A stretch of 27,818 bases of DNA from a virus (Duplodnaviria; Heunggongvirae; Uroviricota; Caudoviricetes): the IMG/VR virus record IMGVR_UViG_2740892369_000014, one strand, 5' to 3'. The position numbers are program-made. Within the stretch, counting starts at the first letter, position 1. The number at the start of each line of letters is the position of its first letter. Of this stretch, positions 9,001-15,000 are shown piece by piece.

Positions 9001-12000
9001 TACCCGCACGTTACCTCCAGATGCGTTGCTGGAATGTGCGGGACGGACGCGGCGGGCGTTCGGAATAAAGGAGCCTGACGTAGATTATCCAGTGACGGTA
9101 GTCGAGGCTAAGGGCTTTCTTAAACTCATACCCACGTCTGCGGTAGTTATGAATCAGCCATTCGGCCTGTTCTTCAGTGCAGGGATCGTGCTGATACCAG
9201 TCATATTTGAATGTGTGAGAACACCGCCCTTGCCTGCTGGCAGGGGCGATATCAGAATTGTGATGTTTGGTATTGTGCGCCATCGGTTTTCTCTGCTGGC
9301 GCAGCAGGTGCCAGTTGTTCAAGCTGGCGTGCGGCAATATTGTCTCTGATTTCTGTTGTCGTCAACAGGCAACGTGCTATCATCGAATGGTGTTCTATCC
9401 TACTCCGTGAGGTTTACCATGCGTACAACCCAACAATTCAGCATTACATTAACTAACGAAATGGCTGACATGGTGCGCGCCCGTGTGGCTTCCGGTGCCT
9501 ATGCTTCAGAAAGCGAGGTCATTCGTGAAGGGCTTCGCGCACTGAATGAGCGCGATAAAGCAATCGAAGCGTGGTTAACGCATTCAGCCGCCCCCTCTCT
9601 TGATTCTATCCGCGAAAATCCAAACAACGGACGCTCCATTTCACAGGTTCGCGCCGCGATTCGATCCGGGAAGTAATCTGCATGACATATGAAGTCATCA
9701 TTACTCCTGAGGCCGAACAACAAATAATCAACCTGCACAGGTATATAACGGAGAAAGCAGGGAACGTCATTGCTGACAATTATGCCAATGCGCTTCTTGA
9801 TTATCTTGATGGGTTTTCTACATTCCCGCATCGGGGCAATAAACGCGATGATATTCGCCAGGGGATGCGGGTAACTCATTTCCGCCACAGAACGATTATT
9901 GCTTTTGCCGTTGATAGCAGAAAAGTCTTTATTGTCGGTATCTATCATGGTGGGCAAAGTTATGAAACCGATTTCTTATAAACTTTTACCCACATCATTC
10001 CGGTGTTAGAATTAACCGTCCGCCCCCTCTCTTACTGGCGGATTCGTAGGCTATATAAATCAAAGATCCCGGCTCATGTTTATGTCGGGATCTTTTTTCG
10101 GCGATTTATCCCCAGCGGCAAATCGAATACACCACCAGCGCCACCGCCATCGCAATTCCTACCGTTGTGAATGCTTCAGGCCAGGTCATCGTAAAATATC
10201 CTCCACGCTTATCAGTCCGTTCCGCTCCAGATAACTCATCGCCTTATCCGGTAATTTGCAGTCTGGCTTCGCTTTCCTCAGTTGCCAGGTTAACTGCTTT
10301 ACCAGCATGGTTAACTCATCGACCAGACGCTGATATCCCACTGGTTTGTATTCATGCAATTTACCGGCTGGCTCTGCTGCCAGCGATACCAGTGCGATTT
10401 CCAGAACAGCAATATCCATCTTATATGTGCGGATGATGTCATGGTCGATTGTGCCCGGTATGCACAGTCTCTGTGTTTCAATAGTCTCCTCTGCGTGAGC
10501 TATTAACTGCTCTCTGGTAAAAGTCGTCATGCCGTAGCCCCTTCTTGATATTTTTCAAACCAGAACACAACTGGGTCAGATTTCATTTCAACCAATCCCA
10601 TACGAACCAGCGCTTTGCCTTTCCCGGACGCAAGGAATTCACGACGACCATCACTGATAATTCGCCGATAATCTTCCAGACTACTGCAATGCTTGTGCAG
10701 ATTGCATGGGTGGCATGCCGGAACCATGTTGGATATATCGTCACGTTCCTGGTGAAGCATATTTCCATCAAAACGAATGACCGGTTTTACATGGTCTGCA
10801 TGCCACTTTTCGCCAAGTTCGCAGCCGCAATAAGCACAGCGACCGCCGAACTTCATGCGCAGCTCTGCACGTTGTTTTTTCGTCAGTGCCATATCAGCTT
10901 TCCTTATACGGATTAATTTTATTGTGCAGTGTGCTGAACGACGCCCACACCACGTCGTTATACAATTCAATAACTGGCTCAATTATTTTCACGATAAACC
11001 AGACCAGTAATAGCGGGGGTATCGGTATCATCAACACGATAAATATAATGAGAAACAAAAATTCTGTCGCTCTACTTTTTCTCGGATATTCTTTTCTGAA
11101 TAATGTAGTCATTTCTTACCGCCCTTTCAGGCGGCCTCCTGATGTTTTGAGGGTGCAGAAATCCCTCCGGTTAAGGATTAAATTTTTAACTAAATTTAAT
11201 TATTCAGGCGCGATAAGCTGTTCCGCACAATCCAGCAATGCTTCTGTCGCTTCCTTAAGCGTTACTGTATCGCTATCATCCAGTCCTGCAACTTTTTCGT
11301 ACCTGACAAACGCCGCGCAAAGCTCGTTAAACAACCCCGCCCGTACTTCAGCCAGGAAAGCGTCGGTGGCCGGAGTTTCAGGAATCCGTCTCCTCATCCG
11401 TTCTATTGCATGATTGAACCCGAAATCTTCAGCAAGAGATACGTCATCCATATTGTCATTGTCGTCCTCAATATCCCGTGGTTCTGGAATTGCAGACTTT
11501 ATTACCGCATTCTCCGCCGCCAGCGCCACAAGATTAGCTTTCAGCTCTGCAATTCGTTTGTTTTGGGCTTCCCGTTCATCCAGTAGTGCCAGCGCAACAT
11601 TTGGATTAAAAGCAGCAATAAATTCAGCGTTTGCATAAGCCTGAACATCTGTTTCAACCAGGCAGTTAACATGACATTCTGCAATTACGCCACCGGGCTC
11701 TCCTTTCCATTTTTGACAAACAAAAACTCCTGTTATATTCCCATGCTGATTGCCCGATGTATGCCCTACGATGTAGCATCCTTTAGTTGCTTTCTCTGCT
11801 GCTTCACGCAGCGCCTGATAGTCAATCTCGCTCATTCATCGCCCCACTCATCACAATATGCTTCGACCGGATTTTTTCCTGCTTCATAATCATCACGCCA
11901 TGCTTCAGCATCAGCAGCACTGCCACCACGTAACTCTGCATATTCCATTAACAGTTCATGCCATTCTTCAAAACTGACGCTGTATTTAGTTGAACCAAAA

Positions 12001-15000
12001 TCAGCCATTTTGTTCTTCCTCTTCGTCTTTTATTTCGTGATATGAATAATTGCAGTAGTTAAAGAAAATATCTTTTGCTTCGTCATGTATTTCATCAGGC
12101 GTCGCATCATCATCCACTTCGAATTCATCCTCGAAATCTCCACCGGCTATTCCCGTTTCAATAATTATTTTAAACTTTCGCATTTAACTACCGCCCTTTC
12201 GGGCGGCCTCCTGACATTAATCGTTGTGGTAACTCATGGCTTCATTTGCAACATCAACCGGATCAACCTCCCACCAGCAATAATTTGGTGCGTTTCCTTC
12301 AGGTGTCCACGGTTCTAATTCATTTTTTGCCGCATTCTCATCGCCAGTAATTTTAAAAATCTGCTCAGAGAATTTTCTTGCCCACTCGTTATATTTTTCC
12401 GCATTAATGGCTTTCTGTGTATTTAACATAAATATACCTCCAGTTCAGGATTAGATTTTATTTACAGCGCTAAATTTATTTATTCAGTTCTGGATTTTGT
12501 CGCCCTGCGTATCCGCGCTTTCGCGTTACGTTCAATCTGAATTAACTTTTCTATATTTTTCCGCCTTTCCTGTTCCTCCTGGCGCAATAGCCTTACATCA
12601 TCTGCCAGTCTGGTTTCTCTTTTCGCCACAGAGAGCATCCAGTCAAACGGCTCCACAACCGCACCGCAGATTTTACAGCGGACCTGGCGCTCTTTTTCGT
12701 CAACCCGAACAGAGGCGTGATGACAATATGGTCTTTCCGATGGCTCATAAAGAAAATTAACCTGATTACGAGGGTCATCCTCTTTTACCGGAAATAAAAC
12801 GATATTGCTTAACTCATCCTCTGGTTTTATTTCCATGCTCCTCTCCTTTGATGCGAATGCCAGCGACGCGTAATGCGTGTTCTAGGTCAATCAGGTAAAG
12901 CCAACTGCCATTTTCTTTAGGTATCATGACATGTCGCTCATCTGCATTTATCGGGTGTCCATATCGAAGGTCGTAGCGAGTCGGTAATTGAACTTCCCGC
13001 GCATCCAGTTCAGCAATACGCTTGCTCCCATCAGAGATAACGCCTTCGTAATACTCACGCTGCTCGTTGAGTTGTGATTTTGCTTCTTCCAGTCCATCCA
13101 GCAAACCAGCGATAATATCCGCTTCCCGATGACGGATATGACGCTTAAACGCAGCAAGAGCCGCATCACAATCCCGTTCAGCATTTGGGCTGTCCGGGGT
13201 AGCCTGATACCACGCCAGCGTCGACTGATAGTTTTGTGCTGCCTCACGAAGCGCCTCATAGTTAACCTCTCTCATCGAGCCACCTCCTGATAAATCACCG
13301 CATGCCCCAGTTTCTCCGCCAGTGCCAGCTCTGCCTTAGCGCCCGCTGACCGCTGCCAGCCATTCAGCATGTAAATCGCATCCACACAACGAATCATTGC
13401 CATGCAAATATCCATGTAGTGCGGCTGTGTCAGCCCGTCCGGAAGTACTGCCGGAGTTAAGACGGTATGCCCTTCCCGTTTCAGTTCCTCTTCCGCCTTG
13501 TGAAACGCCTCACGGTTGAAATTTTCATATCCCGTCATTGGACCGGCAATATAAACTCTCACCCTCACTCCATCACCTCCTGAAAGTTTCCCCGATAGAA
13601 CGCCAGCACACGCTGCATAACTTCGCTCTGGCGGCACTCACGACAAATTATGTTCTGCCGTCTGTTGTAACGACGTATTTCTCCGTCAGGTAACTTTCGA
13701 ATCAGTGTCGGGTCAGCAGCCTTCTCCGGTGTCTTACGCCATACGCGATACGCCTGCTCTGATGGAAATACCCCGCAACCAGAGAGCCAGACATCACCAC
13801 TGGCCGCAAGCGCACCAGATAAACGACGAATAGCGGTCTTACTGACACCCGTTTTATCTGCCAGTTGTCGAAAAGTTTCTCGTCCGCTCAGGCGCACGAA
13901 TTCCACAATGCGCGCCTTCACTTCTTCCCGCTCTTCTGGTGTAAATTCTTTTGCCATAAGCGCCTCCGGCAATCACTTTTCCGATACAACACGGCGGGAA
14001 GAATCAGTAATCTGTCGAACAATATCCCGGTGCTTGTTCAGCTCCCGCAGCGCGGCGCAGACTCGCTCCCACTTCTGAACCTGACCTTTTGCCCGGCGCA
14101 GCTCGCGGTTAGCCACATGCAGCGATGGTAAAATCAGACCATCCGGATGTTTTCTGGTGAACGACGGCTGTGACTGCACTGTGACCGCCACACTTTCCGT
14201 TTTTATTTCTTCCTGTGTTTCTGCTTCCCGAACTGGTAACGCAACACCTGCTGGCTGAGGAAAGGCTTTACCATCGGTTTCCGCTACGGATGCAGCTTCC
14301 GGCTCTGCCGGTAAATCAGCGCCCGGTATGCAGTAACGAAATTTACCGCCCTGATTCACGCGAATCAGACGCCCTTTGCTGATTACCATGGCCAGCGATG
14401 AATTCGCCCGGCGGGAGGTAATCCCGAACATCAGTGCCAGCTCATCCGCCGTTTGTGGGCCATGTTGTTCAATCGCCTCAGTCAGCATTTGCGCTGTCAC
14501 TTTCGGTACCGGTGACACCGGTTCACTTTCACCAGCCTGAATCAGCCACCACATCGACCCCTTGTTATCCGCTTCACCGCGGCGCTTCAGTTTCCACAGT
14601 TCGTTGACCGCATCTTCACGGCTGATTCCAAGGCGGGCCGCCACTACCTGTGAAGAGGCTCTTTTCAGTGCTTTCAGTGCGTCAAATACGGTTTCCATTA
14701 AAATTTCCTCCGACAAAATCGTTTCTCAGATTCAAATAAAACCAGCTGCCTTCCGGCGTTCGTATTCCTGTTTCAGCCGCTCAATTGGCGTTGGCCCTTG
14801 CGGGTGTTTCGCCCCTTCCAGTTGTCGTCGCACTGGCGGAACACTCATCCCGTTACCAACATGCTTTGCCCATTTCGTCAGTTGCCGTTCTGCAAGTAGT
14901 TTTAACTCACCCTGCGTCATCTGGCGCTCAATCCCTCTGGTACGCATTTCGAGGCAGATGTGGTACAGCACAGGCTGTGGCCACGGGTATTTATCACTCC

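Follow-up and report, generated by a model that had tools for sequence, protein, structure and literature searches.

The 27,818-nucleotide (nt) DNA of IMG/VR virus record IMGVR_UViG_2740892369_000014 (Caudoviricetes), hereafter the window, contains two copies of a 26-nt element, each located just upstream of the start codon of a small accessory gene. The clearest result of our analysis is that this 26-mer is a widespread, start-codon-linked junction at which the accessory modules of prophages have recombined. An earlier account made from the DNA letters by themselves (the sequence-only reading) had noted the two copies and their hairpins; it overlooked this strongest finding, that the 26-mer is a portable junction of recombined gene modules. 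With moderate confidence, we favor a combined explanation, in which the 26-mer is a mosaic junction and also a portable ribosome site whose Shine-Dalgarno (SD) sequence is linked to the start codon by a bridging hairpin.

The pattern TCAGGAGGCCGCCYGAAAGGGCGGTA occurs exactly twice in the window, each time on the minus strand (11117-11142 and 12189-12214), and had no match in any of 100 shuffles of the window. A repeat search of the window returned the same two copies as a 26-nt direct pair, 96% identical and 1072 base pairs (bp) apart. All neighboring genes are on the minus strand, which is thus the mRNA sense. The sequence-only reading had correctly recognized the near-identical pair before the ATGs at 11112 and 12183 and had quoted both sequences correctly, while its coordinates were 4 and 1 nt off. 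The copies and their hairpins, as folded with ViennaRNA, are as follows.

12189-12214, minus strand: element copy 1, TCAGGAGGCCGCCCGAAAGGGCGGTA, with the SD GGAGG at 12211-12207.
12207-12201 with 12196-12190, minus strand: stem of the copy 1 hairpin, with a GAAA loop at 12200-12197.
11117-11142, minus strand: element copy 2, TCAGGAGGCCGCCTGAAAGGGCGGTA, with the SD GGAGG at 11139-11135.
11135-11129 with 11124-11118, minus strand: stem of the copy 2 hairpin, with a U.G pair beside the loop and a GAAA loop at 11128-11125.

The minus strand reads GATTAATG-TCAGGAGGCCGCCCGAAAGGGCGGTA-GTTAA-ATG from 12214 to 12181 and AAAACA-TCAGGAGGCCGCCTGAAAGGGCGGTA-AGAA-ATG from 11142 to 11110, leaving a gap of 5 nt between element and ATG for copy 1 (ATG 12183) and 4 nt for copy 2 (ATG 11112). 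In the mRNA sense, copy 1 is GGAGG, CCGCCC-GAAA-GGGCGG, UAGUUAA, AUG, and copy 2 is GGAGG, CCGCCU-GAAA-GGGCGG, UAAGAA, AUG. This is the layout that had been described from the sequence, a GGAGG followed by a 6-bp stem with a GAAA loop, a spacer of about 6 nt and the AUG. In the ViennaRNA fold, the stem is closed by one more pair, a G.U formed by the final G of GGAGG with the U that follows the 3' arm. The stem therefore comprises 7 bp, six of them C-G or G-C pairs (one is U.G in copy 2) plus the closing G.U. Folding of the leaders bore out both hairpins, with energies of -15.5 kcal/mol (copy 1) and -12.9 kcal/mol (copy 2) and z-scores of -3.5 and -3.0 against shuffles. GGAGG is located 23 nt (copy 1) and 22 nt (copy 2) from the AUG in the linear sequence, and 6-7 nt from it once the hairpin is formed. 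When folded in silico in 76 different flanking contexts, the six core pairs had a mean pair probability of 0.98; in the same contexts GGAG was unpaired with a mean probability of ~0.5 and the 12 nt 3' of the hairpin with ~0.6.

The element is tied to start codons well beyond the window. We surveyed 114 distinct occurrences from other contigs for an open reading frame (ORF) of at least 30 amino acids (aa) within 20 nt of the hairpin, and found one in 101 of them. The spacer between hairpin and start codon was 6-11 nt in 98 of these 101 (6 nt in 17 cases, 7 in 53, 9 in 19, 10 in one and 11 in 8), and GGAGG was 22-27 nt from the AUG in the same number; the other three are doubtful calls with a spacer of 2 nt. 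The 13 occurrences without such an ORF are mostly frameshifted or truncated copies that start like these genes; one lacks a start codon altogether. The orientation of the element relative to the start codon is always the same. By BLASTP, the downstream ORFs fall into four multi-member clusters, with no inter-cluster matches at an E-value of 1e-5, plus singletons: DUF7167 (60 aa), DUF4014 (72 aa), a 140-196-aa family and a 173-aa family. Their spacers are A/U-rich (UAGUUAA, UAAGAA, UAAUGAAAA and similar) and in most classes contain no other canonical SD; only the 173-aa family has a GGAG of its own there, in the spacer UGGAGAUAAUA.

The element is non-coding, is located on the sense strand and belongs to gene starts. 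A coding role was considered and rejected, as the window frames that run through the element are closed by stops. Some DUF7167 database entries (P0003 and P0009) are 84-87 aa long, with the ORF extended through the element (..HQEAARKGGSE-MRKFK) in variants without an in-frame stop. Such extended ORFs occur only in TAGTGAA variants, are not conserved and lend no support to a coding role. The unusual SD spacing thus seems to mislead gene callers, which is of practical relevance for annotation of the DUF7167 ORF.

The element is common. An exact scan of IMG/VR for GGAGGCCGCCYGAAAGGGCGG showed that at least 120 contigs carry it, and a 71-mer consisting of leader and element is present in 1465 of 5426 complete E. 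coli genomes, at 1-5 sites each. Among GenBank phages, the 71-mer occurs in only 19 records, all of Escherichia type except one labeled 'Actinobacillus'. This record, PP818812.1 ('Actinobacillus phage vB_Apl-pPE4'), has an E. coli-type lambdoid early region at 92-95% identity, and it looks as if either its host label is doubtful or the transfer was recent. The element is not present in the K-12 Rac prophage, and homologue searches with both downstream proteins found matches in Escherichia and Shigella only. The 26-mer is thus widespread yet taxonomically narrow, being an element of Escherichia prophages. The sequence-only reading had allowed that it might prove to be a widespread repeat unrelated to gene starts; widespread it is, but it is tied to gene starts. 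A single occurrence falls outside lambdoid early regions and is probably coincidental: at L041 (11455-11476), an identical 21-mer is contained in the coding N-terminus (..AQEAARKGGNE..) of a P2-like terminase-M-type ORF beside a capsid gene.

The evidence for module exchange comes from what is located on either side of the element. In the window, with genes named after their ArgO145 counterparts, the order is gp16, copy 1, gp15, gp14, gp13, a 57-nt leader, copy 2, gp12 and gp11.

12217-12429, minus strand: gp16 ('context B'), 70 aa, with its TAA stop 2 nt before copy 1.
12001-12183, minus strand: gp15, DUF7167, 60 aa, behind copy 1, with the spacer UAGUUAA at 12190-12184.
11832-12008, minus strand: gp14, 58 aa, part of the 1072-bp block between the element copies.
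11200-11835, minus strand: gp13, Ead/Ea22-like, which with gp14 forms the 1072-bp block between the direct copies.
11143-11207, minus strand: 'context A' leader after the Ea22-like gene, consisting of an A/U-rich stretch, hairpin 1 and AAAACA.
10894-11112, minus strand: gp12, DUF4014, 72 aa, behind copy 2, with the spacer UAAGAA at 11118-11113.
After gp12 in the gene order: gp11, an HNH endonuclease.

Two upstream contexts can accordingly be distinguished: context A, the leader after Ea22-like genes with its hairpin 1, and context B, the 3' end of a gp16-like gene. Counted as distinct contexts, the DUF7167 family follows context A in 51 cases and context B in one, the DUF4014 family in 8 and 9, and the 140-196-aa family in 18 and 3; a separate sample contained seven further loci with context B before DUF7167. 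The 26-mer is the only sequence that these arrangements have in common. Since all combinations of context and family are present, which is in effect a four-gamete test, exchanges took place within the 26-mer or at its edges.

Match boundaries locate the breakpoints to the same place. In a local BLAST comparison of the window with the fetched loci, 194 of 1353 high-scoring segment pairs (HSPs) start exactly at 12214 and 180 of 1353 end exactly at 11117. In an unbiased search of GenBank phages, query position 287 (= 12214) recurs as the start of many partial matches and 1384 or 1391 (= 11117, 11110) as the end. The order of modules also differs between the window and L071 or L002. The window has gp16-element-DUF7167-gp14-Ea22-leader-element-DUF4014, whereas in L071 gp16-element-DUF4014 is located upstream of gp17-leader-element-DUF7167. 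Judging from the sequence arrangement, context B joined to DUF4014 would be the product expected from a deletion between the two direct copies in the window. We conclude that recombination took place at the element.

Because the same 26 bp precede many unrelated genes, they provide the sole homology between otherwise unrelated modules. We infer that the exchanges were driven by homology through these 26 bp, and recombination within them would have shuffled the upstream and downstream modules. The phage encodes RecT and an exonuclease, and systems of the RecT/exonuclease type are able to use short homologies. In lambdoid modular theory, and in comparisons of HK97, HK022 and HK620, conserved 'linker' sequences at module boundaries are proposed sites of homologous exchange. 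Like those linkers, the 26-mer is a short conserved sequence at the boundaries of otherwise unrelated modules. Unlike linkers in general, it is a defined 26-mer with an SD and hairpin design, and its edges coincide with breakpoints to the nucleotide.

A second precedent is found in the PeSL (promoter-early stem-loop) cassettes of T4-type phages, which mediate modular shuffling (PMC2839356, PMC4122927). Here too, a short conserved stem-loop motif is repeated intergenically beside variable ORFs in a hyperplastic accessory region, and genome comparisons trace insertions, deletions and replacements to recombination between copies, with breakpoints at the motif. A PeSL, however, consists of a sigma-70 promoter and a terminator stem-loop; the 26-mer contains neither and, to judge by its sequence, is part of a translation-initiation region. 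PeSL mini-circles have been shown physically, while the 26-mer is known here from sequence comparison. A further possibility is that the 26-mer is a dedicated cassette-exchange site, with a palindromic core that folds in single-stranded DNA or RNA and is preferred by the phage RecT/exonuclease or by the HNH endonuclease, which would swap, delete or circularize cassettes. We regard this as quite unlikely. If true, lambdoid prophages would own an integron- or PeSL-like shuffling system with automatically translation-competent joints.

We now turn to what the element may do in the mRNA. In the explanation that we favor, the 26-mer would serve small accessory genes in lambdoid (Stx / Rac-type) prophages of Escherichia as a portable cassette for initiating translation. 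In the proposed layout, a strong SD (AGGAGG) borders directly on a local hairpin of high stability, and 6-11 A/U-rich nt separate this hairpin from the AUG. When the hairpin forms, the SD-AUG distance falls from 22-27 nt to a functional 6-11 nt. As the hairpin forms regardless of its flanks, the SD and AUG should be displayed alike before any gene, and the hairpin may also insulate the initiation region from the upstream module. Consistent with this, pairing between GGAGG and the anti-SD has an energy of -10.3 kcal/mol, which ranks first or close to first in the operon. Its conservation was assessed in a bias-free sample, for which copies were collected via the downstream protein (70 distinct contexts, with 24 distinct 26-mers, 23 of them complete variants). 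In this sample GGA does not vary and GGAG hardly does, whereas 10 of the 14 stem columns show changes. We infer that GGAGG is the SD actually used and that the hairpin is required for that use.

This design has a precedent in the split ribosome sites of phage T4 (Nivinskas et al. 1999; Malys & Nivinskas 2009; reviewed in PMC3014915). For genes 38 and 25, it is known from experiments that a hairpin formed between SD and AUG restores functional spacing, shifting the distance from 22 to 5 nt (gene 38) and from 27 to 11 nt (gene 25); destabilizing mutations reduce initiation, and reporter assays together with dimethyl sulfate (DMS) probing confirm the split site (PMC3014915). We refolded the T4 gene 38 leader and obtained AAGGAG, an 8-bp stem with a UUCG loop, UAAAU and AUG, at -15.6 kcal/mol. 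As in genes 38 and 25, the SD of the 26-mer is 22-27 nt from the AUG, within the range of a T4-type split site, and a bridging hairpin leaves an A/U-rich spacer, of 5-11 nt in this group; the hairpin predicted in silico for the two window copies leaves 6-7 nt, compared with 5 in gene 38. As in gene 38, the SD extends at its 3' end into the base of the stem, which a stable tetraloop caps. The gene 37 stop abuts the gene 38 SD, and the gp16 stop is 2 nt before copy 1.

The two designs also differ. There is no sequence homology with gene 38, and a GAAA loop on a 7-bp stem stands here in place of a UUCG loop on an 8-bp stem. Each T4 structure is tied to one gene, whereas the 26-mer is one repeated cassette before at least four unrelated families and is also a mosaic junction. 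Split-site function in T4 was proven by mutation and probing, while that of the 26-mer is predicted from sequence and fold. By analogy, a hairpin-bridged ribosome site is plausible here and has good precedent. The suggestion in the sequence-only reading that the hairpin brings a distant SD to normal spacing thus holds up as the best interpretation, given the gene 38 geometry and the tie to start codons; it draws no support from covariation, and 10 of 23 variants have at least one stem mismatch.

Several further observations weigh against a hairpin-bridged site. In the protein-anchored sample, all seven pairs are kept in 13 of the 23 complete variants, but the other 10 contain one or two mismatches, the weakest of them folding at -5.4 kcal/mol, and roughly one copy in three has stem mismatches. 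With 9 of 70 contexts, CCGTTCGAAATGGCGG is the commonest variant, and its fold reaches only -6.4 kcal/mol. Compensatory double changes are present in two pairs, G-C to A-U (CCACCC/GGGTGG) and C-G to A-U (L304), but covariation is not significant, as two compensatory pairs compare with 1.3 expected and were matched by 202 of 500 shuffles. Across all variant rows, one-sided changes are wobble-compatible in 16 cases and pair-breaking in 13, which is about the neutral expectation. One loop variant, GGCA, is not GNRA. An initial pattern, with stem changes solely C-to-U in the 5' arm and an always-GNRA loop, was withdrawn as an artifact of the exact-match sample, since both pair-breaking changes and the GGCA loop are present in the protein-anchored one.

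The SD itself is not uniformly retained. Some DUF7167 genes (L161 and L355) lost the GGAGG half and keep the 3' arm only, and this loss, together with the own SD of the 173-aa family, indicates that the upstream SD is not indispensable. Moreover, the confinement of the element and its genes to Escherichia means that near-identity may reflect recent spread and not selection. Comparisons of conservation between element and flanks were invalidated by indels, had too little diversity or used loci preselected for the exact 21-mer, and we draw no evidence of selection from them.

The 3' arm raises a specific alternative. This arm, AGGGCGGUA, is itself SD-like, binding the anti-SD at -7.8 kcal/mol at a position 4-5 nt from the AUG. 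The hairpin could thus act in negative control or translational coupling by sequestering the working SD, which would be the 3' arm GGGCGGU. The 5' arm CCGCCC would then be an anti-SD mimic, initiation would start only once the hairpin had melted, and GGAGG would be at most a standby site. In context B, the melting could be due to ribosomes finishing gp16 or translating a 9-codon mini-ORF that was read from the sequence.

12188-12217, minus strand: 9-codon mini-ORF MSGGRPKGR*, spanning copy 1.

This mini-ORF begins with an AUG that shares bases with the gp16 stop (UAAUG) and terminates at a UAG whose end is 4 nt ahead of the gp15 AUG; from its sequence, it could be a termination-reinitiation relay. 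In support of sequestration, the energy of the 3' arm equals that of many genuine SDs of the operon (-6 to -8 kcal/mol), the copies without GGAGG keep this arm before an intact DUF7167 gene (L161 and L355), and in context B a stop 2 nt before the element is followed by a mini-ORF (12217-12188) that reads through the hairpin. However, the mini-ORF exists in context B only. The majority of copies belong to context A, in which the stop upstream is ~60 nt distant and ACA takes the place of the mini-ORF AUG. In addition, a hairpin of -13 to -15.5 kcal/mol over the sole SD would nearly silence the genes, and it is GGAG that is most conserved, not the 3' arm alone. We therefore consider sequestration of the 3' arm unlikely. 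The sequence-only reading had offered sequestration of GGAGG as its other possibility; this fails, as GGAGG is free of the hairpin save for its last G, and the sequestered part is the SD-like 3' arm.

The junction findings also invite a simpler account, in which the 26 bp are a recombination scar or linker without RNA function, conserved as a homology patch or as a hitch-hiking end; GGAGG and the hairpin would then be incidental or matter at the DNA level only. Breakpoints exactly at the element edges and the presence of all context-by-family combinations agree with such a scar, as do the non-significant covariation and the frequency of mismatched variants. Among closely related copies, furthermore, the hairpin is not more conserved than its flanks (pi 0.006 versus 0.012, over few sites). 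Yet a scar does not account for the constant orientation and the near-constant 6-11 nt to the start codon, and in most classes the element supplies the only strong SD. A neutral scar is not expected to hold GGA invariant while the stem drifts, and the layout duplicates the functionally proven T4 design. A scar without RNA function is, in our judgment, unlikely, and we retain the portable ribosome site combined with a junction.

Two other roles for the hairpin were weighed. In one, the hairpin (with hairpin 1 in context A) would serve mRNA stability or processing, either protecting the downstream 5' end after an RNase E cut in the A/U-rich leader or blocking 3' exonucleases for the upstream cistron. 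Context A does have a long A/U-rich stretch followed by two stable hairpins, and hairpin formation is independent of context. Specific support is lacking, though: context B is without an A/U-rich leader, the invariant GGAG and fixed AUG spacing would be left unexplained, and no Rfam family matches. An Rfam 15 search of 10500-13000 at permissive E-values gave three chance-level hits (E >= 3), far below the gathering score. This role, whose processing part the sequence-only reading had also raised, appears very unlikely.

In the other, the element would be a transcription signal, namely an intrinsic terminator or a boxB-like nut hairpin. The GC-rich stem with its GAAA loop superficially resembles lambda boxB or a terminator stem, and like boxB the hairpin is part of an early lambdoid transcript and has a small GC stem and a purine-rich loop of the form G..A. 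Lambda boxB differs in its 5-bp stem with a pentaloop and in its place behind boxA, just downstream of pL/pR; the hairpin of the 26-mer has 7 bp and a tetraloop and is located directly before start codons deep in the operon. No boxA-like motif is present near either copy. No U-tract follows either stem, where the sequences are UAGUUAAAUG and UAAGAAAUG, and a promoter/terminator consensus scan made no sense-strand match at either copy, its one weak antisense match (11127-11142) being not above chance. The 26-mer has neither the GC hairpin plus U-tract of an intrinsic terminator nor the features of a nut site, and a role as a transcription signal is essentially refuted by its sequence.

Textbooks treat hairpin-bridged, or 'split', ribosome-binding sites as a curiosity of two genes in the lytic phage T4. 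Should the 26-mer indeed be one, it would be an independent natural split ribosome site in temperate lambdoid prophages, Stx-converting phages included, and a reusable one, placed before unrelated genes in about one in four sequenced E. coli genomes. It would also explain how newly joined accessory genes are expressed whatever lies upstream, and would contribute a nucleotide-precise site to the debate on homologous exchange at short linkers in lambdoid mosaic joints. In a literature search for the 26-mer sequence and for lambdoid junction motifs, we found no earlier description.

The genomic setting is that of an Stx phage. Window positions 10800-12500 are 100% identical to the Stx2-converting phage ArgO145 and to several Stx2a prophages, and form part of a leftward early block whose Ea22-like accessory genes are flanked by int on one side and by the exo/RecT recombination genes on the other. 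When the coordinates of this match are extrapolated, window positions 1-5088 extend ~5 kb past the attL end of the ArgO145 record. An 816-aa plus-strand ORF is located at 20169-22619, where ArgO145 annotates other genes (window beyond ~19500). Given this overhang and the differing ORF, the window is a related prophage or variant, and not ArgO145 itself.

The cassette is also found in another operon. In Escherichia phage vB_EcoS-666R9 (L298, 1440-1570), leader, element and a 167-aa gene are located downstream of DnaC-like, YdaW and LygF genes. As this is beside replication genes and not in the early-left region, the cassette has moved between operons. The stem of this copy has a C-to-G mismatch.

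The leader of context A is conserved upstream of most element copies in other prophages. Its hairpin 1 pairs GAGGG (11167-11163) with CCCTC (11153-11149) around a 9-nt loop. A supposed compensatory change in hairpin 1, GGAGTG...CACTCTC, was rejected, as counting gives a U-U mismatch. In L203, L206, L229, L275 and L298, the 9-nt loop is replaced by a variable poly-G of ~6-10 G, which could be a slippage-prone tract or an assembly artifact. The leader AAATAAAATYTAATCCTKAACYGGAGG, which follows Ea22-like genes on the minus strand at 11143-11207 and ~12430-12466 of the window, is a second conserved junction motif; it either is the direct ribosome site of a gp16-like gene or runs into hairpin 1 and the 26-mer. 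As many as 215 HSPs begin exactly at 11207.

Two further features of the window were recorded. On the minus strand at 6930-6965, near the int/xis end of the leftward operon, a long GC-rich stem followed by T7 (GCACAAGGAAGCCACCGGAAGGTGGTTTTTTTGTGT) is intrinsic-terminator-like. A perfect 19-nt inverted repeat is present at 19536-19554 and 19665-19683 (TGAATTTTGTGATGCGGTG and CACCGCATCACAAAATTCA), with its arms 110 nt apart; among the 25 longest inverted repeats listed for the window, it is the only one that is 100% complementary.

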